Source: Gammaproteobacteria bacterium
GTDB lineage: Bacteria > Pseudomonadota > Gammaproteobacteria > JAJPIJ01
Length of the DNA stretch: 64,000 bases
Direction: 5' to 3'
Assembly: GCA_021324815.1 (NCBI GenBank)
Contig: JAJPIJ010000006.1
Location: 24,814 to 88,813 of the forward strand
Positions within the stretch are counted from its first letter, which is position 1. Every line of letters starts with the position of its first letter. Positions 4,723-57,312 of the stretch are shown here, piece by piece. The translations under genes and the position numbers were made by a program. The notes beneath the pieces are model-generated. The model worked only from the letters and a program-made list of their open reading frames with translations, was not told the origin of the DNA and did no database searches.

Positions 4723-4762
4723 CCGTCATCAAACCGTCATCTTATCGCAATCAGGCTGTCAC
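4723..4762 (+). promoter_or_regulatory. Pho box (PhoB binding site): 7-bp direct repeats at 11-bp periodicity
   Basis: CCGTCAT-caaa-CCGTCAT-ctta-tcgcaat-cagg-CTGTCAC. Three of the four 7-mers match the CTGTCAT/CTGTCAC consensus and the spacers are 4 bp. It ends ~90 bp upstream of the porin start codon at 4854, where a Pho box would replace a -35 element. Confidence 0.5.
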
Positions 4763-4853: not shown

Positions 4854-6374
4854 ATGCTGCCCAACCGTTCACGTTGCAAACCATTGCTTGGCGCCTTTCT
4901 GGCCGCCTTCACCGCGGCCGCAACGGCGCCAGCGGCCCTCGCCGCCAACAATGACGCCCTGCTGGAGCTGCTGCGGGTGCTCAAGGAGAAGGGCACCATC
5001 GACCAGGCGACCTACGATCAATTGAAGGGTGTCGCCCAGGTCGAGAGCGAGCAGACCACGAAGGAACAGGAGGACATGAAGAAATCCACCAAGGAAGTCG
5101 CCGAAAAGGTCAGCAAGGACGAAAGCAAGCATAGTTGGGTCGACAAGGTCAAGGTCTCGACATTGTTGTACGCGGATTACGCCAACTACTACGAAACCGG
5201 ATTCGGTCCGCAGTTTCTCACCCAGATCAATCCGCCCGGCCCGGGCAACGACGGTTTCAACTCGTTTGACATCACCCGCACCTATCTCAACGTGCTGTTC
5301 ACGCCCAATGACGACTGGACCTTCCGGCTGACGCCCAACATCTACCGCGCGATCGGCTCCAGCACCGCCGACAAGAGCGGAAAAACCGGTGCGATAGGCA
5401 GCAATCTCGATGGCAACCTGAATTTCCGCCTGAAATACGCCTACGTGCAGTACAACAAACTGCTCGACGGCATCGAACCGCTGAAGGGCGGCATGATCAC
5501 GGTCGGCCAGCAGATGAACCCGCTGGTGGACTGGGAGGAGGCGCTGTACGGGTTCCGCTATGTCAATCTGGTGCCGTGGAACTACTTGAGCCTGTCATCG
5601 ACGCAGGTGGGCGTCTCTCTCAAGGGACCCATCAAGTTCAACGGCAGGACCTACGTGGACTACGACTTCGGCGTTTACAACAACGCGGCGTTCCGCACCT
5701 TCGAGCAGACCGATGAAAAACAGGGCATGGTGCGCGTGTCGGTCTACCCCTTTGGCGCCGAGAAGCGGTTCGACGGCCTGGGGCTGACGGGGTTCTACGA
5801 TCGCGGCCACGGCAACGTCACGCCGGACACGACGATCACCACGGCACTCAAGGGACCTGATTCGGACATTGAACGTGTCGCCGCCCTCGTGCATTACACG
5901 ACCAACGACTGGCAGCTCGCCGGTGAATACGACTGGGGCAAGAATGCCTTCACGCCCGGAAACCTGTTCTCCGGCAGCGGTCCCGGCGATGTATTTGGCG
6001 TGGCGACCGGCTTCGCCGATTTCACCACCATGACCAACAACATCCTGAACACGGGGAAGAGCGAGCAGGAAGGGTATGACGTCTTCGGCCACTATCACAT
6101 CCCCGGCACGCCGCTGACGCTGTTCGGCATGTATGAGAAATTCATGCCCAACACGAGGGTCGACCATAATCCGCTCGACTTCGAGCGCTTCGTCGGCGGC
6201 ATCAACTGGGATTACAGCAAGTTCCTGCGGCTGGCGCTGGCCAGCCAGAATTTGTGGTACTCGCATGATCAATTCGACTTCCCCATCACGCCGGGGATAA
6301 GCACGAAGGTCGTCAAGAACGCCGTGCCGGAAGGCATACATGCGATGTTCGTGAACCTTGAGTTCAGTTACTAA
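4854..6374 (+). CDS. Outer-membrane porin, phosphate-selective porin OprO/OprP-like (506 aa) with signal peptide
   Basis: Strong RBS (AGAGGAGAAG). N-terminal signal peptide MLPNRSRCKPLLGAFLAAFTAAATAPAALA. The rest is a long beta-rich, aromatic/Gly-rich sequence typical of a porin barrel. A Pho box lies upstream. Confidence 0.55.
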   Translation: MLPNRSRCKPLLGAFLAAFTAAATAPAALAANNDALLELLRVLKEKGTIDQATYDQLKGVAQVESEQTTKEQEDMKKSTKEVAEKVSKDESKHSWVDKVKVSTLLYADYANYYETGFGPQFLTQINPPGPGNDGFNSFDITRTYLNVLFTPNDDWTFRLTPNIYRAIGSSTADKSGKTGAIGSNLDGNLNFRLKYAYVQYNKLLDGIEPLKGGMITVGQQMNPLVDWEEALYGFRYVNLVPWNYLSLSSTQVGVSLKGPIKFNGRTYVDYDFGVYNNAAFRTFEQTDEKQGMVRVSVYPFGAEKRFDGLGLTGFYDRGHGNVTPDTTITTALKGPDSDIERVAALVHYTTNDWQLAGEYDWGKNAFTPGNLFSGSGPGDVFGVATGFADFTTMTNNILNTGKSEQEGYDVFGHYHIPGTPLTLFGMYEKFMPNTRVDHNPLDFERFVGGINWDYSKFLRLALASQNLWYSHDQFDFPITPGISTKVVKNAVPEGIHAMFVNLEFSY

Positions 6375-13299: not shown

Positions 13300-14697
13300 C
13301 TACGCACACATTCCCTTGGGAATCGTCATGGTGACGCGGCAACCGATTTCCCGCCCGCCATCCATGCGGCCGGCACCGATGGTGACGGCCCCGCCATGGA
13401 CCCGGGCGACGAGGGCCACCAGTGTGAGGCCGAGTCCCGCGCCCGTCCGGCCCCCGCCGGTCCTTGCCGGGGTTCGCGCCGCCTCCAGACGATAAAAGGG
13501 CATCAACACCCGTTCCCGCTCGGCTGGCGGGATGCCCGGCCCCTCGTCGGAAACGCTGAGCGACACGTCCGCGCCGGTGTCGGCGGCGGCCAGGATAATC
13601 CGCCCTGATCCGTATTTTGCCGCGTTCTCGATCAGGTTCCATAGCGCCCGCTTCAGCAATGCCGGATCGGCGATGAGGTGCAGCGGTTCACCCTCCGCGA
13701 CTTCCACCGCCCTGCCCGCCACCAGCGGATCATGCGCGACCTGTTCGGCGATCTGGGCGAGGAACTCCCGCACGTCGATGTCTTCAAGATTCGCCGGCAG
13801 GCCCGTTGCGTCCAGGCGCGTCGCGGTCAGCACGTCCTCCACCAGGCGATCCAGTTCCGCCAGGTCGGTCTCCACGGCGCGCAGGCGATCTTCGGCGATT
13901 TCCCGGCAGGGCAAGAGCTCGAGTGCCACGCGTATGCGCGCCAGGGGTGAGCGGATTTCGTGTGATATGTTCGCCAGCAACTGCCGCTGTCCCCGCAGCA
14001 GGGCGTCGATGCGCTCCGTCATCTGGTCGAAAGCCAGGGACAGTTGTTGCAACTCGTCCGCCTGCCACTGCGCAGGCTTCCACCACGCGGAATTCCGGCG
14101 GCGGGGAGCGGACGCGCGCCAGGTGAAGTCGCCGCGGCCGATACGCCGCGCGGCCTCGGTCAGCCGCTCCAGCGGATGGGAGATGTGCCTGGCCAGCGGC
14201 CGGGTCGCCAGCGCCACGATCAGCCACGCCAGCGTCCAGGTCAGCAGGGGCTGCGGGAGGCCGAAGAACCGCGACCGTTGGTGCGCGGACGCCTCCAGTA
14301 TTCCCAGGCGCTGACCGGAGCGGGGATCGCGGATCAGGAGCTTGACGAGCAATGCCGGCCGGGACAGCCGGATCACTTCCCCGCTCTCGATTTTTTTCAT
14401 TTCCTCGGCGGTTACCGGGGGCAGCTCCTCCCCCGCCGCGGCGAGCACGGACCCCGCGCGATCGCGCACGGTCATGTCCACGTCCAAATCATCGTGAAGT
14501 TGCCGCACCCGCAACGTCAGCGCGGCGCGGTCGTGAAAACTCTCGCCGACGAGGGAGGCCAGATGCGGCCACAGGCGCTCGGACACCTCCGTCTGGAAGG
14601 CGCTGCGGGCGCTGAGATTGAAAAGCGCGCCCGACGTGAGCGAGACGACGAGCACGATCGCGATGAAATACAGATAAATGTGGGTGTGCAAATGCAT
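13300..14697 (-). CDS. Sensor histidine kinase (two TM helices, HAMP, HisKA, HATPase_c), 465 aa
   Basis: H-box …ANISHEIRSPLARI… and N/G-box regions are present (GLGLTLV…). It follows the OmpR-type regulator gene and precedes the efflux operon. Confidence 0.85.
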   Translation of the reverse strand: MHLHTHIYLYFIAIVLVVSLTSGALFNLSARSAFQTEVSERLWPHLASLVGESFHDRAALTLRVRQLHDDLDVDMTVRDRAGSVLAAAGEELPPVTAEEMKKIESGEVIRLSRPALLVKLLIRDPRSGQRLGILEASAHQRSRFFGLPQPLLTWTLAWLIVALATRPLARHISHPLERLTEAARRIGRGDFTWRASAPRRRNSAWWKPAQWQADELQQLSLAFDQMTERIDALLRGQRQLLANISHEIRSPLARIRVALELLPCREIAEDRLRAVETDLAELDRLVEDVLTATRLDATGLPANLEDIDVREFLAQIAEQVAHDPLVAGRAVEVAEGEPLHLIADPALLKRALWNLIENAAKYGSGRIILAAADTGADVSLSVSDEGPGIPPAERERVLMPFYRLEAARTPARTGGGRTGAGLGLTLVALVARVHGGAVTIGAGRMDGGREIGCRVTMTIPKGMCA

Positions 14698-14783
14698 GAT
14701 GACCGGCTTCCGGTTCGGCGGACTACGGTGTTGCGCCGGCCCGGGCCGGCCTTGGGAGGTGGGCGACGCCCCGCGGTTTCATG

Positions 14784-15494
14784 TCAATGTGCGCCATGGC
14801 GCATGAACGCGTATCCCACGCCGCGCACCGTCTTGATGTAACGAGGCTCCCTGGGATTGGCCTCGATCTTGGCGCGCAATCTGGCGATGTACACGTCAAT
14901 CGTTCGATCGAAGACATCGCCCCCCCTCTTGAGGGCGTCGAGCAACTGGTCGCGGGAAAGCACCCGGCCGGCAGAACGCGCCAGCAGCGCCAGCAGATCG
15001 AATTCATACTGCGTCAACACCAGCCGCCGGCCGGCGAGGGACACCTCCCGCGTGTCAAGATTGACCGTCAGATCTCCGGAGGAGACGCACGCCGGCGCCG
15101 GGCTGGCGGCGCCCCCGGAGGCTCGCCGCAGCAACGCCCGCACGCGGGCCAGCAACTCGCGGGGATTGAACGGTTTGGCCAGGTAATCGTCGGCGCCCAG
15201 TTCGAGTCCAACCACCCTGTCCATGACGTCGCCCTTCGCGGTCAGCATCATGACCGGTATCGCGGCCAGTTCCGGCGTCGCCCGGATGCGGCGGCACAGT
15301 TCCAAGCCGTCCAATCCGGGCAGCATGATGTCCAGAATGACGATGTCGAATCGCTTGTTTCGCAATGTGGAGAGACTCGCCGCCGGGTCGCTGATGACGG
15401 TAAGATCGATGTCGTTCGCACCCAGATACTCCCTGGCAAGGGCGCCCAGCCGGGCGTCATCATCAACTAGAAGGACGGAGGCGCGGGATGCCAT
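14784..15494 (-). CDS. OmpR/PhoB-family response regulator (receiver domain plus winged-helix), 236 aa
   Basis: MASRASVLLVDDD…FDIVILDIMLPGLDGLELCRRIR…, with a C-terminal wHTH (…YIKTVRGVGYAF). Confidence 0.9.
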   Translation of the reverse strand: MASRASVLLVDDDARLGALAREYLGANDIDLTVISDPAASLSTLRNKRFDIVILDIMLPGLDGLELCRRIRATPELAAIPVMMLTAKGDVMDRVVGLELGADDYLAKPFNPRELLARVRALLRRASGGAASPAPACVSSGDLTVNLDTREVSLAGRRLVLTQYEFDLLALLARSAGRVLSRDQLLDALKRGGDVFDRTIDVYIARLRAKIEANPREPRYIKTVRGVGYAFMRHGAH

Positions 15495-24483: not shown

Positions 24484-25445
24484 AGCGGGAACGCAATCTC
24501 CAGATCAACGCCCATGGCCGTCTCCAACATTTTTTAACCATCGAGGGTCTGCCCCGCGAATTGCTGATTGAGATTTTGGACCGGGCGGAAGGCTTCGCCG
24601 GCATCGGCGGGCGGGCGGTGAAGAAGGTTCCGCTGTTGCGCGGCAAGACCATCGTCAACCTGTTCTTCGAACCCAGCACGCGCACGCGCACCACCTTCGA
24701 GCTGGCGGCCAAGCGCCTGTCCGCCGACGTGCTCAATCTCAACATCGAAAGCTCATCGGCAAAAAAGGGGGAAACGCTGCTCGACACGCTGCGCAACCTG
24801 GAGGCGATGCACTGCGACATGTTCGTGGTGCGGCATCACTTAAGCGGCGCGGCCCACTTCATCGCCCGCAACGTGGCGCCGCACATCAGCGTCATCAACG
24901 GCGGCGATGGTCGCCACGCGCATCCGACCCAGGCCATGCTGGACGCCTACACCATCCGCCGCCACAAGCGGGACTTCATGCGGCTCAAAGTCGCCATCGT
25001 CGGCGACGTTTTGCACTCGCGCGTGGCGCGATCCGAGATTCACGCGCTGAAGACGCTGGGCGTGCCGGAGGTGCGCGTCGTCGGCCCGCGCACGCTGATC
25101 CCCGCCGGCGTCGAGGAGATGGGCGTCAGCGTATGCCACGACATCGAGACGGGTTTGAAGAATGTCGACGTCATTGTCATGCTGCGATTGCAGACCGAAC
25201 GCATGCGCGGAGCGCTGCTCCCAAGCGCGGCGGAATATTTCCGCCTCTACGGCCTGACGCCGGCAAGATTAAAGCTGGCCCGATCAGACGCCATCGTCAT
25301 GCATCCGGGACCCATCAACCGCGGCGTCGAGATCGACTCGCAGGTGGCCGACGGGGGCCGCTCCGTCATCCTGCAGCAGGTCAGCCACGGCATCGCCGTG
25401 CGCATGGCGGTGATGGCGATGACCGCCGGCAGCCAGGCAGGCTGA
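24480..25445 (+). CDS. pyrB: Aspartate carbamoyltransferase catalytic subunit
   Basis: …[21 protein letters not shown]…HPTQAMLD… ATCase signatures. Overlaps the pyrR stop. Confidence 0.9.
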
Positions 25446-26838: not shown

Positions 26839-27330
26839 TCAGGGATTCCCCACCTCCACCACGTAGCCATGCTCGAGAAAATCACGGCCCACCAGCATCT
26901 TCTCGTTCATGGCGCTGCGGTCATTGAGATTCACAAGCAGCCGCTCCCCCCGCCCGCGGAAGAGGAGCGTCAGGTAAACATGATAACGCCACTCACGGCA
27001 GTCGCCCGTGCGCACACTTTTGACGTCAGCGACCGTCGAATCCATGGTCACCGATTCGTCCTTTTCATTCACCAGCGTGAAGCGAATCGGTTTGCCGATG
27101 TCGCGGCGCGGGTGCGATTCATCGGCGCCGGTCACCAGGATGTCGCGGGCATTGATGGAGGAAATCGCCGCGCCGGTATCCAGCCTCGCCATGAAGGTGA
27201 TCGGTCCCTCGGCTATGGTAAACGGCTCGGTGGCATGGATGATATGGCCGCCGCGCCAGACGTAACCCACCCACACGCCGACGCCTAGGCTCAGGCAGAG
27301 GGCGGCAAGAAGGAAACGATAATGGGGCAC
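26839..27330 (-). CDS. Retropepsin-like protein, 'putative ATP-dependent zinc protease' family (COG4067/DUF785), with N-terminal membrane anchor
   Basis: …ARLDTGAAISSINA… aspartic-protease-like DTGA motif, preceded by a hydrophobic N-terminus (MPHYRFLLAALCLSLGVGVWVGYVW). Confidence 0.6.
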   Translation of the reverse strand: MPHYRFLLAALCLSLGVGVWVGYVWRGGHIIHATEPFTIAEGPITFMARLDTGAAISSINARDILVTGADESHPRRDIGKPIRFTLVNEKDESVTMDSTVADVKSVRTGDCREWRYHVYLTLLFRGRGERLLVNLNDRSAMNEKMLVGRDFLEHGYVVEVGNP

Positions 27331-27531
27331 GCAAGAATCTCAATCAGGGACGGGCAGCCATCTGCGCCGCAGCGCCGGTGCGCGACCTATTCTAAGGGAA
27401 GTCTGCTGCTGCGGTGAATCCCCGACGACGGAGGAGGACTGGAAATCGTTTACGCCGGGGCGCGTATGGATTATCTTTGGCCCTTTCCGGTGAAAACGGC
27501 CATGGATAGATAATCAACCATTCTCGAGATC

Positions 27532-28053
27532 ATGAACGATGCACGCATACGTTTGTTGCAAAACATGCCGATCTTCGGCGGCGTCAACGCGGACATCTTG
27601 AGCTACCTCTTGCAGTTTACGCGCATCGTCAAACAGCCCGCGGGCGCCTATTACTTCCGCGAACGGGACCCGGGCGATTCGATGTTCGTGCTGGAGGAGG
27701 GCGAAATCGACATCGTCAAGAGCTGGAAGGACAACACCTATCTGTTGCGCAGGCTGGGGGTTGGTGATTGTTTCGGAATTTTGACGTTGCTTGATCTGGG
27801 GCCCCGCAGCGGGTCGGCAATCGCGCGCCAGCCCTGTTCGGCGATCGAAATCTCCACCGCCAACATGTACGAGATTTACAAAAAGGATCCCGAGCAGTAC
27901 ACGCTGTTGCTGATGAATCTGGGCCGCGAGGTCAGCCGCCGGCTGCGCGAGGCCGACACGCAATTGTTCAAGACGCTGGTGGAGCCGGAATATGCGGCCC
28001 GCGACTGGATCGCGGCGGATCGCTACATCGACCCCGTAGACACCCCTTTGTAA
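27532..28053 (+). CDS. Stand-alone cyclic-nucleotide-binding (CAP effector) domain protein, 173 aa, no DNA-binding domain
   Basis: …FGGVNADILSYLLQFTRIVKQPAGAYYFRERDPGDSMFVLEEGEIDIVK…LLRRLGVGDCFGILTLL… cNMP-binding beta-roll motifs. Too short for Crp/Fnr, with no HTH. Confidence 0.6.
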   Translation: MNDARIRLLQNMPIFGGVNADILSYLLQFTRIVKQPAGAYYFRERDPGDSMFVLEEGEIDIVKSWKDNTYLLRRLGVGDCFGILTLLDLGPRSGSAIARQPCSAIEISTANMYEIYKKDPEQYTLLLMNLGREVSRRLREADTQLFKTLVEPEYAARDWIAADRYIDPVDTPL

Positions 28054-31816: not shown

Positions 31817-32281
31817 ATGATCACGCCGCTGGCAAAAATGGTGCGGGTCGGATGGCGCGAATGGGTGGGCCTGCCGGACCTGCATATTCGCGCCATCAAG
31901 GCCAAGGTGGACACCGGCGCCCGCACCTCCGCGCTGCACGCGTTTTCCGTGGCCCGCATCGTGGAGCGCGGCGTGCCCCGCGTGCGGTTTCAGATGCATC
32001 CCAGCCAGTATCGCACCGACAGGATCGTGACCTGCGTGGCCGACATCCTGGATGAACGCTGGGTGACCGATTCCGGGGGGCACCGGGAAAGGCGCATCGT
32101 CATCGAAACCACGGTGCAGTTGCGCGAGCAGCGCCACCGCATCGAGGTCACGATCACCGATCGCGACACCATGCGCTTTCGCATGCTGCTGGGGCGCACC
32201 GCCATGCGTCATCGTTTCGTGGTCGATCCCGCCGCCTCCTATCTGCTGGGCCGGCCGGCGGGGAAGGGAGGCGGCGCATGA
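31817..32281 (+). CDS. Retropepsin-like COG4067/'ATP-dependent zinc protease' family protein (RimK-associated), cytoplasmic paralog
   Basis: …[16 protein letters not shown]… DTGA motif. Its stop overlaps the rimK start (ATGA). Confidence 0.6.
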
Positions 32282-33183
32282 AGATTGCGGTGCTTTCGCG
32301 CAATCCCAGACTGTATTCCACACGCCGCCTGGTGGAGGCGGCGGAGCAGCGCGGCCATGAGGTGCGGGTCATTGATTTCCTGCGCTGTTACATGGACATC
32401 ATCGCCCATCAACCCCGCATCTTTTACCATGGCGAGGAATTGACCGGCTTCAACGCCATCATTCCCCGCATCGGCGCCTCGGTGACGTTCTACGGCGCCG
32501 CCGTGGTGCGGCAGTTTGAAATGATGGGCGTGTTCAGCGTCAACGAATCGGTGGCCATCACCCGATCCCGCGACAAGCTGCGCTGTCTGCAACTGCTGGC
32601 GCGCCGGGGCGTGGGGCTGCCGGTCACGGGTTTCGCCCATGCGCCGGAGGACATCAAGAACCTCATCCGCCATGTCGGCAGCGCGCCGGTCGTCATCAAG
32701 CTGCTGGAGGGCACACAGGGCGTCGGGGTGATGCTGGCGGAGACCGCCAAGGCGGCGGAGAGCGTGATGGAGGCCTTCATGGGCCTCAAGGCCAACATCA
32801 TGGTGCAGGAATACATCCGCGAGGCCAGGGGCATGGACATCCGCTGCCTGGTCGTCGGCGGCAAGGTCATTGCCGCCATGCGGCGCCAGGGCCGCGAAGG
32901 AGAATTCCGCTCCAACCTCCACCGCGGCGGCAGCGCGTCGCTCATCCGCATCACACCCGAGGAGCGTGCCATCGCCGCGCGCGCCGCCCGCATCATCGGT
33001 CTCAACGTTTGCGGGGTGGACATGCTGCGTTCCAACCACGGTCCGCTGGTGATCGAGGTCAATTCCTCGCCGGGGCTCGAGGGCATCGAGACGGCCTCGG
33101 GGAAGGACGTCGCCGGGGCCATCGTCGAGTTCATCGAGAACAAGGCGCGTCCGCATCGCACCCGCACCCGCGGCAAGGGCTAG
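32278..33183 (+). CDS. rimK: Ribosomal protein S6 L-glutamate ligase RimK (ATP-grasp)
   Basis: [29 protein letters not shown]…[13 protein letters not shown]… is colinear with RimK. Confidence 0.85.
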
Positions 33184-33193
33184 CGCGGATGCG

Positions 33194-34219
33194 TTATTGC
33201 GCCGGCACGATGCGTTTGCGGTGATCGACCGGCGCCAGCAGGGAGGCGAATCGTTCGGCGCAGGCGCGCCAGGTGCGGCGGCGCGCGTAGTCCACGCAAT
33301 TCTGGCGCGGGATTTTCAGGGCGCCGGCGATGGCGGTGGCCAGGTCCTCGTCCAGCACGCCGGTCTTGCCGTCGCGGACGACGTCGATGGGGCCGGTGAC
33401 CGGAAAGGCCGCCACCGGCACGCCGCAGGCCATCGCCTCCAGCATGACCAGGCCGAAGGTGTCGGTGCGGCTGGGAAACACGAGCACGTCCGCCGCCGCC
33501 ATGATGGCGGCCAGCGCCCTGCCACGCTTCTCCCCGAGGAAACGGCCGTCGGGGTGGGCGGCGCGCAATCGCGCGCTGTCCGGCCCGTCGCCGACGATGA
33601 CCTTGGTGCCGGCGACTTGCAGTTGGAGGAAGGCCTCAAGATTCTTCTCCACCGCCACGCGTCCCACATACAGCAACAACGGCCGCGGCCAGTCGATGGA
33701 TGAGCGGGGCTGCGGCTTGAACAGATTGCAATCGACACCCCGCGACCACAGCGCCAGCCGCCGGAAACGCCGCTGCTCAAGCCGCATCAGCATCGACGGC
33801 GTGGCCACCATGGTCACCGCCGCGGCGCCGTGGAAGCGGCGCAGATAGGCGTACGACCACGGCAGCGGCACCGGCACGCGGGCGCGGAGGTACTCCGGAA
33901 ACTGGGTGTGAAATGAGGTGGTGAAGCGCCAGCCGTGGCGCCGGCAAAACGCGCGGGCGGCGTGGCCGAGCGGCCCCTCGGTGGCGATGTGCACGGCATC
34001 GGGCGCGAACTTCCGCAACATGCGGGCCACGCCCGCGGCCGGCAGGACCGCCAGCCGGATGGAGGGATAGGTCGGGCAGGGAACCGTGCGAAAGGACTGC
34101 GGGGTGACGAACGATACCTCGTGTCCCAGCGCGCACAGCTCCGCGCCCGTTTGTGCAAGGGTGTTGACGACGCCATTGACCTGCGGGTGCCAGGCATCGG
34201 TGACGATCGCGATGCGCAT
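33194..34219 (-). CDS. GT4-family glycosyltransferase, SQD2/SqdX/Agt-like (candidate glycosyl-diacylglycerol synthase), paralog A
   Basis: MRIAIVTDAWHPQVNGVVNTL…GHEV… N-terminal GT-B acceptor domain and C-terminal …PSRTDTFGLVMLEAMACGVPV… EX7E-type donor motif. The ATG at 34219 is internal to the longer listed ORF. Confidence 0.7.
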   Translation of the reverse strand: MRIAIVTDAWHPQVNGVVNTLAQTGAELCALGHEVSFVTPQSFRTVPCPTYPSIRLAVLPAAGVARMLRKFAPDAVHIATEGPLGHAARAFCRRHGWRFTTSFHTQFPEYLRARVPVPLPWSYAYLRRFHGAAAVTMVATPSMLMRLEQRRFRRLALWSRGVDCNLFKPQPRSSIDWPRPLLLYVGRVAVEKNLEAFLQLQVAGTKVIVGDGPDSARLRAAHPDGRFLGEKRGRALAAIMAAADVLVFPSRTDTFGLVMLEAMACGVPVAAFPVTGPIDVVRDGKTGVLDEDLATAIAGALKIPRQNCVDYARRRTWRACAERFASLLAPVDHRKRIVPAQ

Positions 34220-34560
34220 GCGGGGCGATGGTCCCGACCGTGGTCGCGCGGACGGCGGCTCGATGTTTATGTTTGCCCCGACAAGGGCATGCATGGTGAC
34301 GGTATCCCGCAATCAAACGCAAGCATTGAAACCAATTCACATCGGCGGAATCCGGCCGCGTCGTCTGCGTCGACGGCAGGGGTTCCTCCCGTCGTGAATG
34401 AACGGCGACGGATCGGCGATCGTGCGATGAGCCGGTGAACCCGGTAAGCTTGAATTCGCCATTCGAACGTCCCGTAAATTCCGCGGCAAAGGGTGCGGGC
34501 GTTTGATGGCGATGGCGTGAAAACAAAAAGTCATTTTGATGACAACAGGGAGAATGATGA

Positions 34561-34959
34561 ATGACCGCGATGAACGACAACGCCGTCCCCAAGGGTCAGA
34601 ACCGGGGCTGGCGGCGGTTGCGCAATGCCCTGTCGTATTCCAGGCTCGGTCTGCTGGCGGCCTACCGCCACGAGGAGGCGTTCCGCATGGAGTTCTGGCT
34701 GGCGGTGTGCATGGCCGTGCTCGCGCTGCTGCTGCCGGTGAGCCGCCTGGAAAAACTGCTCATGGTGGCGAGCCTGCTGGTCGTGCTCATCGTGGAACTG
34801 CTCAATTCGGCCATCGAGGCGGTGGTGGATCGCATCTCCACCGCCCAGCACGAGCTTGCGGGCCGCGCCAAGGACATGGGCAGCGCCGCCGTGCTGCTGT
34901 CCCTGCTGCTGTGCGTGATGGTGTGGTCCGCCATCCTCGTCCACCGCTGGTTTTACTGA
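34561..34959 (+). CDS. dgkA: Diacylglycerol kinase (prokaryotic DgkA family, 3 TM)
   Basis: …SLLVVLIVELLNSAIEAVVDRISTAQHELAGRAKDMGSAAVLLSLLL… is nearly identical in pattern to E. coli DgkA. Confidence 0.85.
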   Translation: MTAMNDNAVPKGQNRGWRRLRNALSYSRLGLLAAYRHEEAFRMEFWLAVCMAVLALLLPVSRLEKLLMVASLLVVLIVELLNSAIEAVVDRISTAQHELAGRAKDMGSAAVLLSLLLCVMVWSAILVHRWFY

Positions 34960-35025
34960 GGCATTGCCTGATTTCAGCGGCCTGGCGGAGAGGGCGGGCC
35001 CCCGAGCCCTTCGGATTTCCCGCTT

Positions 35026-35928
35026 GTGACCGAACTGTCACGAAACCGCAATACGGCTGTCATGCCGTCGTGTCTGAATGCCGGCGGTTCGTACGTGAGG
35101 ATGCCCGTGCTGGACACCGCGGAATTTCTGATTTTCCGTCCGCAACATTACCGCGCCATCTGGATCTCCGACATCCATCTTGGCACGCCTGGCTGTCAGG
35201 CCGGGTATCTCCTCGATTTTCTGCGCCGCCATGAGTCGGACTACCTCTACCTGGTCGGCGACATCATCGACTGCTGGCAGCTCAAGCGCCGCTGGTACTG
35301 GGTCCAGAGCCACAACGACGTGGTGCAGAAAATCCTGCGCAAGGCGCGCAAGGGCACGAAGGTCGTCTACATCGCCGGCAATCATGACGAAGTGGCCCGG
35401 CAGTTCCTTGGCTACCGTTTCGGCGACATCGAGATTGCCAACGAGGCCGCGCATACGCTGGCCGACGGCCGGCGGCTGCTGGTCACGCACGGTGATCTGT
35501 ACGACGCCGTGGTCCAGCGGGCCCGCTGGCTGGCGCTGCTGGGGGATCACCTCTACACCCTCATCCTCAAGCTCAACCGGTGGTTCAATCACCTGCGCGC
35601 GCGCTTGGGGCTGGGTTACTGGTCGCTGTCCCAGTATCTGAAACACAAGACCAAGAACGCGGTGGATTTCATCACCGATTTTGAGAACGCCGTCGCCATT
35701 GATGCGCGCCGCCGCGGCTTTCACGGCGTGGTGTGCGGACACATCCACAAGCCCGTCATCAAGGTCATCGACGGCGTGCTCTATTGCAACGACGGCGACT
35801 GGGTGGAGAGCCTCTCCGCACTGGCCGAAACCATGGAGGGCGAGCTGCGGCTCATCGAGTGGCGGCGGCTGGGCGGCGTGCCGCGGGAACCGTGGCACGA
35901 GGCCCGCGAGGCGGAGATCTCGGCTTGA
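35026..35928 (+). CDS. Calcineurin-like metallophosphoesterase, LpxH/PlcP-like (UDP-2,3-diacylglucosamine hydrolase family homolog)
   Basis: …AIWISDIHLG…YLVGDIIDCWQ…YIAGNHDE…VCGHIHKP… metallophosphoesterase motifs I-V. The start may be the ATG at 35101 (MPVLDTAEF…). Confidence 0.6.
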   Translation: MTELSRNRNTAVMPSCLNAGGSYVRMPVLDTAEFLIFRPQHYRAIWISDIHLGTPGCQAGYLLDFLRRHESDYLYLVGDIIDCWQLKRRWYWVQSHNDVVQKILRKARKGTKVVYIAGNHDEVARQFLGYRFGDIEIANEAAHTLADGRRLLVTHGDLYDAVVQRARWLALLGDHLYTLILKLNRWFNHLRARLGLGYWSLSQYLKHKTKNAVDFITDFENAVAIDARRRGFHGVVCGHIHKPVIKVIDGVLYCNDGDWVESLSALAETMEGELRLIEWRRLGGVPREPWHEAREAEISA

Positions 35929-36935
35929 AGGTGCTGATCGTCACCGACGCCTGGGCGCCGCAGGTCAACGGCGTGGTGACGGTCCTGCGCACGATCGGAA
36001 GGACCATGGGCCGGCGCGGGCATGTCGTGGAGTTCCTGTCGCCGGCGGGCTTCAAGTCGCTGCCCTGCCCCACTTATCCGGAAATCCGGCTGAGCGTGCT
36101 GCCGTACCGCCGGGTGGTGGCGTGCATCGAATCCTCGGCGCCGGACGCCATCCACATCGCCACCGAGGGGCCGCTGGGCCTGGCCGCCCGCCGCTATTGT
36201 CTCAATCGCGGCATGCCGTTCACCACCGCCTACCACACCCGCTTCCCGGAATACGTGCACGCCCGCGTCCGGCTGCCGCTGTCGATCACCTATCGCTGGC
36301 TGCACCGCTTCCACCGGCATGCGCGTGCGTTGATGGTGCCCACGGCGGCGGTGCGTCGCGAGTTGCAGCACCGGGGCTTCACCAACACCGTGCCCTGGAG
36401 CCACGGCGTGGACACGGAAATCTTCTCGCCGGGCGACCGTGAATTCCTCGACACGGCGCGGCCGATCTTTCTCTATGTGGGCCGCGTCGCGGTGGAGAAA
36501 AACATCGAGGCGTTTTTGCAGCTGAACCTGCCGGGATCGAAATGGGTGGTGGGCGAGGGGCCGCTGCGCCCCTGCCTGGAGCACCGCTATCCCCATGTCA
36601 ATTTCGCCGGCATCCAGCCGGTGGAGCAACTGGTCCGCTTTTACCGGGCCGCCGATGTGTTCGTGTTCCCCAGCCTCACCGACACCTTCGGGCTGGTGCT
36701 GCTGGAGGCGCTGGCCTGCGGCACGCCCGTGGCCGCGTTTCCGGTCGCCGGGCCCGCCGATGTCATCGGCAACAGCCCGGTGGGCGTGCTCGATTGGAAC
36801 CTGCAGTCGGCCTGCCTGCGCGCGCTGGAAATCTCCCGGCAGGAGGCGCGCCGGTATGCCGGGTGTTTTTCATGGGACCACGCGGTGCGGCAGTTCGAAT
36901 CCTACCTCGCGCCCCTCGGGCGCGGCGATCAGTGA
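35925..36935 (+). CDS. GT4-family glycosyltransferase, SQD2/Agt-like, paralog B
   Basis: LKVLIVTDAWAPQVNGVVTVLRTIGRTMGRRGHVVEF… parallels paralog A at 33194..34219 residue for residue. TTG 35925 overlaps the phosphoesterase stop; GTG 35931 is an alternative. Confidence 0.7.
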   Translation: MKVLIVTDAWAPQVNGVVTVLRTIGRTMGRRGHVVEFLSPAGFKSLPCPTYPEIRLSVLPYRRVVACIESSAPDAIHIATEGPLGLAARRYCLNRGMPFTTAYHTRFPEYVHARVRLPLSITYRWLHRFHRHARALMVPTAAVRRELQHRGFTNTVPWSHGVDTEIFSPGDREFLDTARPIFLYVGRVAVEKNIEAFLQLNLPGSKWVVGEGPLRPCLEHRYPHVNFAGIQPVEQLVRFYRAADVFVFPSLTDTFGLVLLEALACGTPVAAFPVAGPADVIGNSPVGVLDWNLQSACLRALEISRQEARRYAGCFSWDHAVRQFESYLAPLGRGDQ

Positions 36936-36973
36936 ACCACGGCGGCGGGGTTGCACGAAATGGTTTGAAGGTG

Positions 36974-37047
36974 TGGCTACGGGTGGGCTCGAACCACCGA
37001 CCTCAGCATTATGAGTGCCGCGCTCTAACCGGCTGAGCTACGTAGCC
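36974..37047 (-). tRNA. tRNA-Met (anticodon CAT, elongator type)
   Basis: Reverse complement GGCTACGTAGCTCAGCCGGTTAGAGCGCGGCACTCATAATGCTGAGGTCGGTGGTTCGAGCCCACCCGTAGCCA folds as a cloverleaf. Anticodon loop CTCATAA. Near-identical to E. coli metT. Confidence 0.85.
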
Positions 37048-37100
37048 TTAGCAAGAGGGCGCGATTGTCCGGAGTCACCTCCGGCTTGTCAATGGTGGTG

Positions 37101-37742
37101 CTAGCGCACGCCAAAGACCACGATGGTCTTGCCGTGGGCCGTCAGCAGGTGCTGCTCTTCGAGTGACTTGAGCACGCGGCCGACCATCTCACGCGAACAG
37201 CCGACGATGCGCCCCAGCTCCTGGCGGGTGATGCGGATCTGCATGCCGTCGGGATGGGTCATGGCGTCGGGTTCCTTGCAGAGGTCCAGCAGCGTGCGCG
37301 CGATCCGGCCGGCGACGTCATGGAACGCCAGGTCGCCGACCTTGGTGTTGGTGCGGCGCAGGCGCAGCGCCAGTTGCGAGGCAATCAGAAAAATCAAATC
37401 CGGCATGAGCGTGGTGAGGGATTTGATGGCGTCATAGCTGATGCTGGCGATGTCGCAGGCGGTGCGCGCGCGCACGAAGGCGGTGCGGCTGACATTCTCG
37501 TTGAAGAGGCCGATCTCACCGAAGAAATCGCCGGTGTTCAGGTAGGCCAGCACGATCTCGCGGCCATTCTTGTCCTCCAGCAGGACCGTCACCGAACCGC
37601 TGACGATGTAGTACAGCTCGTTCGAAGGATCGCCCTGCCGGATGATGGTGCTTTTGGCGGGATACATCTTCCTCTGGCAATGCTCGAGGAAGCGGCGAAT
37701 GGTTTCATTGCCCTTCGCGGGCTGGCGCAGATCAGGCATCAC
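37101..37742 (-). CDS. crp: cAMP receptor protein CRP/Vfr (cNMP-binding domain plus HTH)
   Basis: …[36 protein letters not shown]…[39 protein letters not shown]…GKTIVVFG… is colinear with E. coli CRP. Confidence 0.9.
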
Positions 37743-55037: not shown

Positions 55038-56078
55038 ATGCGCGCCCGCGGTGGCATGTCTACACCCGATGGACCCGCAAATAGAGCCGGCACGTTGAAG
55101 AATGCGATTTTCCTGGGTTTGGTCGCGGGACTGGCGCTCGCCGCCGGCCTATTGATCAATTCGGGGCTCGCGGACGTCGGGCATGCGATCGCCGTGGGCG
55201 GCTGGCCGGCGCTGCTGGCGGTCACGGTTTTGCATCTCCCCTCCATGGTGCTGTGCGGGCTGGCGTGGCATCAGGTGTCCTTCGCCGCCGGCAATCCGAT
55301 CGGCCTGTTCGCCGCCGCGCGCCTGGTTCGGGACGGCGCCGGCAGCGTGATCGCGGTGTTGCCGATCAGCGGCGAGCTCGCCGGCATGCGGGCCCTGGTC
55401 TGCTGCGGGTTCACCGCGTCCGACGCCATCGCCAGCGTGGTCGTCGACGTCACCATGGAGCTCTTAAGCCAGGTGGCGTTTTCCATCATCGGCGTGGCGC
55501 TGTTGTACTGGCAGAACCCGCAGGATCCAATCATTAAAACCGCCGCCCTCGGCATCGCGGTGGCGGTGCCGGCGGTGTTCGGTTTCATGAAGATGCAGCG
55601 CTCCGGCCTGCTGAGCGGGCTCGAGCAGCTGTCCTTCAAGCTGGCGGAGGCGCAGCAATGGCCGGCCGCGCGCGGCGTGTCGAGGATCGAGGCGGCCATC
55701 CACGGCCTCTATCTCCGCCGGCGCCGGGTCTGGCGCGCCTTTACGCTGCACCTGCTGGCCTGGATCGCCGGCGCCGCCGAGGCATGGGCCGGCCTGTGGT
55801 TCCTGGGGCACCCGCTGGCGGTCTGGCAGGTGCTGGCCATCGAGAGTCTGGTCTATGCCATCCGCACGGTGGTGTTTTTCGTGCCGGCCGCGGTCGGCGT
55901 GCAGGAGGGGAGCTACGTGATGCTGGGCGCGATCTTCGGCCTGGGGCCGCAGGTGGCGCTGGCGATCTCGTTGCTCAAGCGCGGGCGCGAGCTGGCGCTG
56001 GCGGTGCCGGCGATGTTGATGTGGCATCTCCTGGAGAGCAGGCTGATGTTGCGGCGGCGGACGCCGTCGCCGGATTGA
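55038..56078 (+). CDS. Flippase-like / lysylphosphatidylglycerol-synthase transmembrane-domain family protein (HpnL-like), ~8 TM
   Basis: Polytopic 346-aa protein with the pattern of the UPF0104/LPG-synthase TM region. An alternative start is the ATG at 55056. Confidence 0.6.
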   Translation: MRARGGMSTPDGPANRAGTLKNAIFLGLVAGLALAAGLLINSGLADVGHAIAVGGWPALLAVTVLHLPSMVLCGLAWHQVSFAAGNPIGLFAAARLVRDGAGSVIAVLPISGELAGMRALVCCGFTASDAIASVVVDVTMELLSQVAFSIIGVALLYWQNPQDPIIKTAALGIAVAVPAVFGFMKMQRSGLLSGLEQLSFKLAEAQQWPAARGVSRIEAAIHGLYLRRRRVWRAFTLHLLAWIAGAAEAWAGLWFLGHPLAVWQVLAIESLVYAIRTVVFFVPAAVGVQEGSYVMLGAIFGLGPQVALAISLLKRGRELALAVPAMLMWHLLESRLMLRRRTPSPD

Positions 56079-57312
56079 AGGTCGGGATGCCCGCCGGCGC
56101 GGTTCCGTCTGCCAGGGGGTGAACGGCCATCTGCAGGCCCTTTTCGGCCCGCAGGACATGCCCGCCCCAGCGCATCGACCGCGAGGCGAAGCTGGCCAGC
56201 CAGACGTTGAAGGTGAGACATTCACGCACCAGCAGCATGCCCAGGGATGCGTGCCGCCGGCATCCCAGCCGCCCGGAGACCACGATGTCCAGTTGCTGTT
56301 TCAGGGCGGCATGCAGCAGCAGCAGAACCAGATAGCTCAATCGGAAGTGCGGCCACAGCAACAGCACCGAGCACGGCAGCAGCCCATGCATCACCAGGGC
56401 GCAGGCATGGGCCAGCGGACGGCAGGCCCGCAGCGAGCGCATCCACCGCAGTTCGTGCTCGAACAGCGTTTCAACGCCGTCCTCGGCGACGATCGTGCCG
56501 ACGACATAAGGCGCCAGCCGCAGGCGGAAGCCCGCCCCGCGCAGGAGCCTGCCCAGCACGTCGTCCTCGGCGACGGCGGACGCCAGGGCGCGAAATCCAC
56601 CGGCGCTTTCGAGCGAACGGCGCGTCACCGCCATCACCGCCCCGTAGAGCAGGTCGATCTCCCGCAGGCCGGAATCCACCAGCATCGAGGGCAGCAGCCA
56701 GTTGTTGATGTGCATGGCGCCGAGTCGCGAGGCCAGGTTCTCGACCGGCTCGCCCTTGTACAGGCAGGTGACCCCGCCCACACCGTCCTCCGACAGCGGC
56801 GCGACCACCGTGGTGAGGAAGGCCGGATCCACCTTCACGTCGCTGTCCACCATGACGATGACGTCATGCCGGACGGCGCGGTACATGTTGGCGAGATTGG
56901 AGACCTTGGGATTGGAACCGATGCGGGCGTCGTCCACGACCAAGGCCGCATCCAGGTGCGGCAACTCGGACATGATCCTTTCGATCACGCCGCGGCCGGC
57001 GTCATCGGCGCGGTGAAGCCCGAACACCACCTGGTACACGGGATAATCCTGCTCGCAGCAGGAGCGCAGGCATTCATAAAGGCCGCGCGGCGCGCCGCAC
57101 ACCGGCAGCATGATCGTCACCGGCGGCTGGAAGGGGGAGGTGAACAGCCGGCGCTCATGGAAACGCGACATGCGCCACAGGGCCACCATCAGATAGGCGA
57201 TGCTGGCCAGCGACAACAGGACGCCGGCGGCGTGCACGCGGCTCATGTGATAGAAGGCGTGATGATGATGGGCGTGCCAATGGCCCCAATGATGGAGTGC
57301 GTAATAGTCCAA
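55975..57312 (-). CDS. Membrane-bound GT2 glycosyltransferase (HpnI-like / ceramide-glucosyltransferase-like) with His-rich N-terminus
   Basis: …PVTIMLPVCGAP…VVFGLHRADDAGR…DSDVKVDP… GT2 DxD-type motifs, flanked by TM segments. The N-terminus is MDYYALHHWGHWHAHHHHAFYH when the TTG at 57312 is taken as start. Its last 104 bp overlap the convergent HpnL-like gene. Confidence 0.6.
   Translation of the reverse strand: MDYYALHHWGHWHAHHHHAFYHMSRVHAAGVLLSLASIAYLMVALWRMSRFHERRLFTSPFQPPVTIMLPVCGAPRGLYECLRSCCEQDYPVYQVVFGLHRADDAGRGVIERIMSELPHLDAALVVDDARIGSNPKVSNLANMYRAVRHDVIVMVDSDVKVDPAFLTTVVAPLSEDGVGGVTCLYKGEPVENLASRLGAMHINNWLLPSMLVDSGLREIDLLYGAVMAVTRRSLESAGGFRALASAVAEDDVLGRLLRGAGFRLRLAPYVVGTIVAEDGVETLFEHELRWMRSLRACRPLAHACALVMHGLLPCSVLLLWPHFRLSYLVLLLLHAALKQQLDIVVSGRLGCRRHASLGMLLVRECLTFNVWLASFASRSMRWGGHVLRAEKGLQMAVHPLADGTAPAGIPTFNPATASAAATSACSPGDATSTSPAPPAPARARA

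Follow-up and report, generated by a model that had tools for sequence, protein, structure and literature searches.

A candidate phosphate-responsive PlcP-Agt-DgkA locus with two Agt-type glycosyltransferases in an uncultured gammaproteobacterium

Gene Organization of the Locus

A contig of the gammaproteobacterial lineage JAJPIJ01 (GenBank assembly GCA_021324815.1, JAJPIJ010000006.1) was analyzed over 64,000 nt (positions 24,814 to 88,813 of the forward strand), a stretch that is referred to here as the window and is numbered from its first nucleotide. Four genes were confirmed at positions 33194-36935 by an open reading frame (ORF) map and domain scans: two glycosyltransferase family 4 (GT4) genes on opposite strands, termed agtA and agtB, enclose a diacylglycerol kinase gene, dgkA, and a metallophosphoesterase gene, plcP. 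A preliminary description of the sequence had read these genes as a phosphate-stress lipid-remodelling module composed of PlcP, Agt-type glycosyltransferases and DgkA, a reading that profile scores, motifs and synteny all support. Very probably, the locus is of the PlcP-Agt(-DgkA) type, belongs to the Pho regulon and remodels membrane lipids.

On the minus strand, agtA (33194-34219) encodes a protein of 341 aa beginning with MRIAIV; a longer ORF from a TTG codon reaches 34312, and the resulting N-terminal extension is not conserved among relatives. A divergent spacer of 341 bp, in agreement with the 340 bp reported earlier, separates agtA from dgkA on the plus strand (34561-34959), the gene of a predicted integral-membrane diacylglycerol kinase. 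The same strand carries plcP (35095-35928, with an ORF open from 35026) and agtB (35925-36935), which has a TTG start and encodes 336 aa. A tRNA-Met (CAT) gene on the minus strand (36973-37047), identified by ARAGORN and scoring 69.5 bits in Rfam, forms the right-hand boundary of the locus. The paralogy of the two GT4 proteins was confirmed, as they share 51% identity over 331 aa in a gapless alignment (E = 6e-113). Likewise, the TGA stop codon of plcP (35926-35928) does overlap the TTG start codon of agtB (35925-35927), giving the sequence TTGA at 35925-35928, and a CTGA overlap occurs at the same junction in a relative. These overlaps point to translational coupling of plcP and agtB. The complete agtA-dgkA-plcP-agtB layout, including its flanks, recurs in two related loci, L081 and L082, whose proteins are 84-87% identical to those of the window (DgkA 68%).

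Three start codons can be considered for plcP, namely GTG 35095, ATG 35101 and GTG 35107. A public gene call instead starts the phosphoesterase at ATG 35062 (288 aa), a codon that falls within the last heptamer of the Pho-box array described below (CTGTCATG). This codon is an unlikely start, since L081 and L082 both carry an in-frame TGA directly after its equivalent; the sequence GTGAGGA(T/C)GCC(C/T)GTG is conserved in both at the plcP start region. Judging from this conservation pattern, plcP probably starts at 35095, 35101 or 35107, and not at ATG 35062 or GTG 35026, while ATG 35062 probably belongs to the regulatory site and has been mis-annotated.

The Phosphoesterase and the Diacylglycerol Kinase

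The phosphoesterase scores above the cutoffs of both PF00149 and PF12850 in Pfam. The family alignment shows no variation in its metal-binding motifs DxH, GD, GNHD/E, H and GHxH, and D37, H39, D67, N107/H108, H143, H227 and H229 are shared by all of 22 family members. The protein belongs to the LpxH-like metallophosphoesterases that had been placed between the GT4 genes, and more than 8000 database proteins match it. The best 120 of these are 68-85% identical, and nearly all homologues have been automatically annotated as LpxH. This annotation does not hold for the protein of the window. The NCBIfam equivalog models of LpxH yield 41.6 bits (NF003743, cutoff 134) and 35.7 bits (TIGR01854, cutoff 190.35), and the LpxH chains in the PDB match with E = 6e-7 and 32 bits. 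An AlphaFold model (pLDDT 75) consists of a metallophosphoesterase sandwich with two long inserted helices, and its nearest solved fold is that of LpxH, at a TM score of 0.5-0.6 and 20-22% identity. The modelled fold is of the lipid-handling type and the phosphoesterase is not LpxH; a grouping with true LpxH was the outcome that the preliminary description had named as speaking against its proposal.

The PlcP of the window shares 66-72% identity with the PlcP proteins of species of the Burkholderia cepacia complex, with values of 66-70% for B. arboris, B. dolosa and B. latens (L014, L017 and L020), and this PlcP clade is reported to be at least 84% identical to PlcP of strain K56-2 (bioRxiv 10.1101/2023.05.30.542800). 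The phosphoesterase is best described as a predicted PlcP-type phospholipase C that would release diacylglycerol (DAG) in a Mn2+-dependent reaction.

The product of dgkA reaches 114 bits for PF01219 (cutoff 22.3) and matches the structures of Escherichia coli DgkA over residues 14-126 (PDB 3ZE4, E = 1.2e-27). The segment IVE(L/I)LNSAIEAVVDRI is conserved between the two proteins. Both genes enclosed by the GT4 genes have the domain content that was originally reported, and dgkA is predicted to encode a prokaryotic diacylglycerol kinase with DAG, or possibly undecaprenol, as its substrate.

Two Agt-Type Glycosyltransferases

Both GT4 proteins (341 and 336 aa) match PF13439 together with PF00534/PF13692. 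A characterized enzyme of comparable size is GTcp of SAR11 (334 aa), which produces monoglucosyl-, monogalactosyl- and monoglucuronosyl-DAG (MGlc-, MGal- and MGlcA-DAG; PMC4796936, PMC8231724). The GTcp group is defined by the motifs GRVAxEKN and FPSxTDTFG, by a His104-Asp256 dyad, in which Asp takes the place of the Glu of MshA, and by a set of essential residues (PMC4796936, PMC8231724). The residues validated by mutagenesis comprise G16, L56, G82, G85, H104, T162, R163, R190 and K195 as well as D256, T257, F258, G259, E264 and W320 (PMC4796936, PMC8231724).

Both proteins of the window contain GRVAVEKN at position 186, FPS(R/L)TDTFG at position 248 and H104. When residue equivalence is set by motif offsets (0, then -3) and not by alignment to GTcp, G16, L56, G82, G85 and H104 are found at GTcp's own numbering, and the equivalents of R190, K195, D256, T257, F258, G259, E264 and W320 are found at offset -3. 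AgtA, with FPSRTDTFG at 248, S159-R160 and W317, retains by motif offset every validated residue except T162, which is replaced by Ser. AgtB shows the same Ser and, in addition, a His for R163. This residue, His160, lies within WSHGVD (residues 158-163; window 36396-36413) and is also present in L081 and L082. The Arg at this position is kept in AgtA and in 64 of 69 related Agts; the exceptions are AgtB of this lineage and the Agts of L010 and L013, which occur there as sole copies.

The two signature motifs are common among related Agts (67/74 for GRVAxEKN, 73/74 for FPSxTDTFG), and both are missing in all four distant GT4s found at the same loci. Models of lipopolysaccharide (LPS) transferases give the GT4s of the window 19-24 bits against cutoffs of 385-618, and the preliminary description's second adverse outcome, a grouping with LPS-core transferases, was likewise not observed. 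The best models, GlcN-PG synthase and MGlcDAG synthase, are lipid glycosyltransferases and also remain below cutoff. Taken together, we infer from motifs and profile scores that both proteins are DAG-dependent glycosyltransferases of the Agt/GTcp group. By length (341 and 336 aa vs. about 406 aa), neither looks like an orthologue of Agt2 of Pseudomonas aeruginosa (PA0842).

Conservation and Origin of the Gene Arrangement

Synteny was compared over about 90 loci in all. One genome per species was scanned, and the 80 closest loci, with PlcP proteins 60-80% identical to that of the window, were compared. They derive from Burkholderia, Paraburkholderia, Cupriavidus, Ralstonia, Thiobacillus, Steroidobacteraceae and many metagenome-assembled genomes (MAGs), and lack Pseudomonas and alphaproteobacteria. 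An Agt-type GT4 (sharing 40% identity or more with the GT4s of the window) is located directly 3' of plcP in 66 of the 75 loci with enough sequence, and dgkA follows next on the same strand behind agt in 45 of 70 loci. AgtB shares 54-69% identity with the GT4s encoded immediately 3' of plcP at related loci, including 61-62% with the Agts of B. arboris, B. dolosa and B. latens, and its gene is the positional orthologue of the Burkholderia agt. A second close Agt within 6 kb was found at none of the 80 related genomic loci. Relative to L081, the ratio of nonsynonymous to synonymous substitution rates (dN/dS) is 0.11 for plcP, 0.13 for agtB, 0.12 for agtA and 0.19 for dgkA; all four genes are under purifying selection.

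The additional Agt has a different affiliation. Outside of its own lineage, the best matches of AgtA are proteins of Nitrospira and some gammaproteobacterial proteins (62-68% identity), compared with 51% to AgtB and 53% to the Burkholderia Agt. A neighbor-joining tree places AgtA in a clade A with the Nitrospira-type proteins and the Agt of L087, and AgtB in a clade B with the betaproteobacterial Agts; the tree carries no bootstrap values, and the clade assignment is supported mainly by the identity pattern. As AgtA is closer to the Nitrospira-type proteins than to AgtB, a recent tandem duplication was rejected as the origin of the GT4 pair. The identity pattern suggests that the locus consists of a plcP-agt unit of type B and a solitary agt of type A, and thereby juxtaposes two old Agt clades. 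The module had previously been described as expanded, which is correct in that two Agts are present, though the expansion does not reflect a local duplication.

Clade-A Agts are without a characterized member. They do occur with related genes elsewhere: L087 exhibits a clade-A plcP-agt pair with a stop/start overlap, dgkA is divergent from a clade-A plcP-agt pair in L088 and L089, and in Nitrospira sp. KM1 a clade-A agt is located near a PlcP-like gene and pstS-pstC. The PlcP proteins beside clade-A Agts are only about 52% identical to PlcP of the window. In the metagenomic locus L088 (5064-8944), the divergently oriented plcP-agt pair is followed by a PAP2 phosphatase gene and accompanied by a further GT4 of 393 aa. 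This protein is 32% identical to AgtA, and the locus represents another expanded module with, possibly, an Agt2-like enzyme.

Pho Boxes and Predicted Regulation

The spacer between dgkA and plcP contains tandem Pho boxes on the plus strand at 35024-35063, which consist of four heptamers phased at 11 bp (TTGTGAC cgaa CTGTCAC gaaa CCGCAAT acgg CTGTCAT) and form a predicted PhoB site of the plcP-agtB promoter. The three consecutive 18-mers of this array score 10, 10 and 11 out of 14; a score of at least 10/14 is reached by 30 of about 128,000 positions in the window, and the chance expectation for a pair of CTGTCAY heptamers at a distance of 22 bp is 0.02 per window. The core of the array is kept in L081 and L082 while the flanks have diverged, and L001 and L003 show the same CTG(C/A)AAT-N4-CTGTCAT variant. 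Among related loci, a Pho box of at least 11/14 lies within 250 bp upstream of plcP in 38 of 79 cases (48%), compared with 1.4% of background windows. Pho-box-like sequences, CTGTCAC-N4-CAGTCAC, are also present upstream of plcP in B. arboris, B. dolosa and B. latens. A window-wide search for the classic 18-bp Pho box with up to three mismatches gave four matches vs. 3.1 expected and is not significant alone; the signal is based on phasing, conservation and family-wide enrichment.

The tandem boxes are predicted to replace the -35 element of the plcP-agtB promoter and to be bound by PhoB. The hexamer CTGAAT (35074-35079, plus strand) starts 10 bp downstream of the last heptamer, which is the usual spacing between a Pho box and a -10 element, and TGTCnnAATGCC is conserved in L081 and L082. 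CTGAAT is therefore a possible -10 hexamer. A promoter and terminator scan detected no sigma-70 consensus promoter and no terminator in the spacers between the genes of the locus; the six terminator-like matches that it gave are located in coding regions or at the margin of the divergent spacer. An Rfam scan of 33000-37300 returned nothing beyond the tRNA.

The spacer between agtA and dgkA presents a different picture. Its sole conserved block in an otherwise diverged sequence is AAGTCAYTTTSATGACAA at 34528-34545 (L081 7426-7443), an 18-bp element (AAGTCATTTTGATGACAA) that is kept in L081 and L082. On the minus strand it corresponds to TTGTCAT-caaa-ATGACTT, a Pho box of 10/14, and it also forms the palindrome GTCAT-N4-ATGAC. 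The TTGTCAT half-site that had been noted on the minus strand at this place could be positioned at 34539-34545. The element is situated 17-31 bp upstream of the dgkA start, and since a score of 10/14 occurs in about 6% of 260-bp background windows, it is not significant alone. It may be an operator for agtA and/or dgkA. Because only this palindromic 10/14 element is present there, control of agtA and dgkA by phosphate (Pi) is uncertain. The preliminary description had seen no convincing Pho box; this applies to the divergent promoter, which is without a strong one, but not to the locus as a whole, given the array in the dgkA-plcP spacer. The divergent spacer comprises only about 135 bp in L081 and L082, and the extra stretch of about 200 bp in the window (34220-34440) shows neither an Rfam match nor an obvious ORF.

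A second array of this type allows the motif to be judged within the same genome. The best Pho box of the window (12/14) is found at 4723-4740 and extends into CCGTCAT ctta TCGCAAT cagg CTGTCAC, so that four phased heptamers occupy 4723-4762, upstream of an ORF at 4854-6374 (506 aa). A 29-nt composite of the plcP Pho box has one other copy in the window, which is located upstream of this ORF. The ORF product has no sequence match in Pfam, NCBIfam or the PDB, and its more than 1000 homologues are termed hypothetical, many of them in MAGs of Ca. Binataceae. Its structural model (pLDDT 75), a beta-barrel of the porin type that has a coiled coil at the N terminus, matches OprP, OprO, OmpF and DcaP. 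In L090, a homologue of 54% identity lies between pstS and pstC-pstA-pstB-phoU, and this position inside a pst operon supports the view that the composite motif is the local Pho box. The ORF thus looks like a member of a Pho-regulon outer-membrane channel family for which no profile model exists, and it is most likely the Pho-regulated porin that the preliminary description had mentioned elsewhere in the window. This porin family, embedded in pst operons and missing from Pfam, may be a more original lead than the lipid locus itself. An OmpR-family regulator and kinase encoded at 13300-15494 were considered as PhoBR and rejected, as they score below the PhoB and PhoR cutoffs and are located beside an RND efflux system.

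Genomic Surroundings

Two RimB-like genes (Zn_protease, PF05618) are present in the window, at 26839-28053 and 31817-33183. One of them is paired with rimK directly beside agtA, and the second adjoins the gene of a stand-alone cNMP-binding protein. On the opposite side, the locus is flanked by a true CRP equivalog (331 bits, cutoff 266). Between agtB and crp, where the window (36936-37100) has the tRNA-Met gene, L081 (9902-10549) and L082 contain a gene for rubrerythrin. A more distant family 21 glycosyltransferase gene (GT21; 55975-57312, minus strand) was considered as a Pgt-like lipid glycosyltransferase and rejected, since its product is the hopanoid enzyme HpnI (338 bits, cutoff 310). Judging from this gene, the organism probably makes glucosaminyl bacteriohopanetetrol.

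Predicted Pathway and Alternative Explanations

From gene content, motifs and Pho boxes, we infer the enzymatic activities, the products, the binding of PhoB and the division of labor between the two Agts as follows. When Pi is scarce, phosphorylated PhoB would bind at 35024-35063 and switch on plcP-agtB. PlcP, a cytoplasmic enzyme with an LpxH-like lipid-handling fold, would then remove the phospho-head group of glycerophospholipids, yielding DAG and reusable phosphorus. AgtB, as a retaining GT4 enzyme, would use a UDP-sugar donor to glycosylate DAG with glucose and/or glucuronic acid, resulting in monoglucosyl-DAG (MGDG) and/or glucuronosyl-DAG (GADG). AgtA would act as a second DAG glycosyltransferase, most likely with a different donor preference, as is the case for Agt1 and Agt2 in P. 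aeruginosa. Finally, DgkA would convert surplus DAG into phosphatidic acid, thereby buffering the DAG pool and returning lipid to the phospholipids.

Several points weigh against this scheme. Orthology to characterized proteins is derived from related Burkholderia species, from motifs reported in papers and from synteny, and the organism is uncultured. Within the Pho-box array, the middle heptamer CCGCAAT fits the consensus poorly, and a sigma-70 scan called no sigma-70-like promoter at this site. The element that might serve agtA scores only 10/14, is located about 310 bp upstream of the gene and can equally be read as the palindrome of another regulator. Furthermore, AgtB appears to carry His where GTcp has the essential Arg163 of the DAG site.

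The regulatory points among these are also accommodated by an alternative in which AgtA stands outside the Pi response. Another regulator would bind GTCAY-N4-ATGAC, only plcP-agtB would be controlled by PhoB, dgkA would be a housekeeping gene, and AgtA would either make a DAG-based glycolipid or glycosylate another acceptor. The strong Pho boxes are indeed located downstream of dgkA and serve plcP-agtB only, the element of the divergent spacer, 17-31 bp from the dgkA start, is palindromic and weak, and a second Agt within 6 kb is missing from all 80 related genomic loci. However, members of the AgtA clade are joined to PlcP-like genes and found near pstSC in other organisms, and AgtA itself keeps, by motif offsets, every residue that binds DAG and UDP-sugar. 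The gene dgkA is tied to plcP-agt in the majority of related loci mentioned above and is Pi-induced in Burkholderia, and the four-gene layout has been kept in L081 and L082. We therefore consider an AgtA outside the Pi response unlikely. Distinctly less probable is a sequential action of the two Agts, in which the monoglycosyl-DAG made by one enzyme would be extended to diglycosyl-DAG by the second. The His of AgtB at the acceptor-site Arg makes an altered acceptor conceivable, but this Arg is likewise absent from the only Agts of L010 and L013, so that the substitution need not alter function. Moreover, the known plcP-linked synthases of di- and triglycosyl-DAG are glycosyltransferases of other types, and characterized enzymes of the Agt group make monoglycosyl lipids only and differ in their donor, not in their acceptor. 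The suggestion of mono- and diglycosyl products in the preliminary description found no direct support.

The public annotations favor yet another assignment. With LpxH for the phosphoesterase and "glycosyltransferase involved in cell wall biosynthesis" for nearly all GT4 homologues, and with LpxH as the closest solved fold, the genes could be taken for a lipid A/LPS locus with LPS-core or cell-wall transferases. This assignment is opposed by the LpxH scores (36-42 bits vs. cutoffs of 134-190), by the equally low scores of the LPS transferase models, by the Agt signature motifs and the low identity to solved LpxH, and by a synteny that involves dgkA and Pho boxes in place of lpx or waa genes. 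It is the least plausible of the alternatives and can practically be set aside in favor of the lipid-remodelling locus.

For an uncultured proteobacterial lineage, the analysis corrects the annotation from LpxH and cell-wall glycosyltransferases to PlcP, Agt and DgkA, and predicts that this lineage swaps phospholipids for glycolipids when Pi is scarce. With two Agt clades and one PlcP, the locus offers a compact natural test case for the determinants of donor and acceptor specificity. It is doubtful, though conceivable, that a new head group made by the clade-A AgtA, or a shifted acceptor due to the Arg-to-His exchange in AgtB, results in a hitherto undescribed pair of PlcP-pathway glycolipids; if so, this pair could include, for instance, one of the glycolipids of Pi stress that are as yet unassigned, such as UGL of P. 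aeruginosa or KGADG of Burkholderia. Conceptually, the locus adds little and is of modest interest, since the literature already covers the pathway and its control by Pho, the dgkA connection and the pairing of two Agts.

Comparison With Known Systems

PlcP-Agt pathways are known from Sinorhizobium, Phaeobacter, SAR11, P. aeruginosa and Methylosinus. In pathogens, the trait alters polymyxin resistance and intracellular survival (PMC8528852; bioRxiv 10.1101/2023.05.30.542800). LpxH resembles PlcP of the window in its calcineurin-like core, inserted helical lid and lipid substrate, but acts on a pyrophosphate, whereas the substrate predicted for PlcP is the phosphodiester of a glycerophospholipid; the genomic context differs as well. 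SAR11 'Ca. Pelagibacter' HTCC7211 shares the plcP-agt arrangement (PlcP, PB7211_983; GTcp, PB7211_960) and the motifs at matching positions. In this alphaproteobacterial lineage, a single promiscuous Agt makes three glycolipids, whereas the window has two Agts, and GTcp carries Arg163 where AgtB has His.

In P. aeruginosa, as in the window, one PlcP (PA3219) is accompanied by two GT4 Agts, Agt1 (PA3218) and Agt2 (PA0842; Jones et al., 2021; PMC8528852). There, agt1 forms an operon with plcP, both promoters contain Pho boxes, and the Agts divide the work by donor, with UDP-Glc leading to MGDG and UDP-GlcA to GADG (PMC8528852). The gene coordinates in Table S2 of Jones et al. give 1221 bp for agt2 (about 406 aa) and 1056 bp for agt1 (about 351 aa; PMC8528852). 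Agt2 is unlinked in P. aeruginosa, whereas both Agts of the window (336-341 aa) belong to one locus, a comparison made by gene lengths; no dgkA has been reported at the P. aeruginosa locus, whereas the window has one.

The closest counterpart is the plcP-agt-dagK operon of B. cenocepacia (BCAL2364-BCAL2366), all three proteins of which rise under Pi depletion and in which deletion of plcP abolishes MGDG, KGADG and GADG (bioRxiv 10.1101/2023.05.30.542800). The window contains the same three gene families, as judged through B. arboris, B. dolosa and B. latens, and the link of DgkA to plcP-agt has already been described in Burkholderia. In contrast to the Burkholderia loci, where dgkA is located downstream of plcP-agt, the window has dgkA upstream of plcP and outside the unit driven by the Pho boxes, and it adds a divergent second Agt from another clade. 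These two departures from the described loci, the addition of a clade-A AgtA and the position of dgkA upstream of plcP, can be regarded as organizational variants of a known system.

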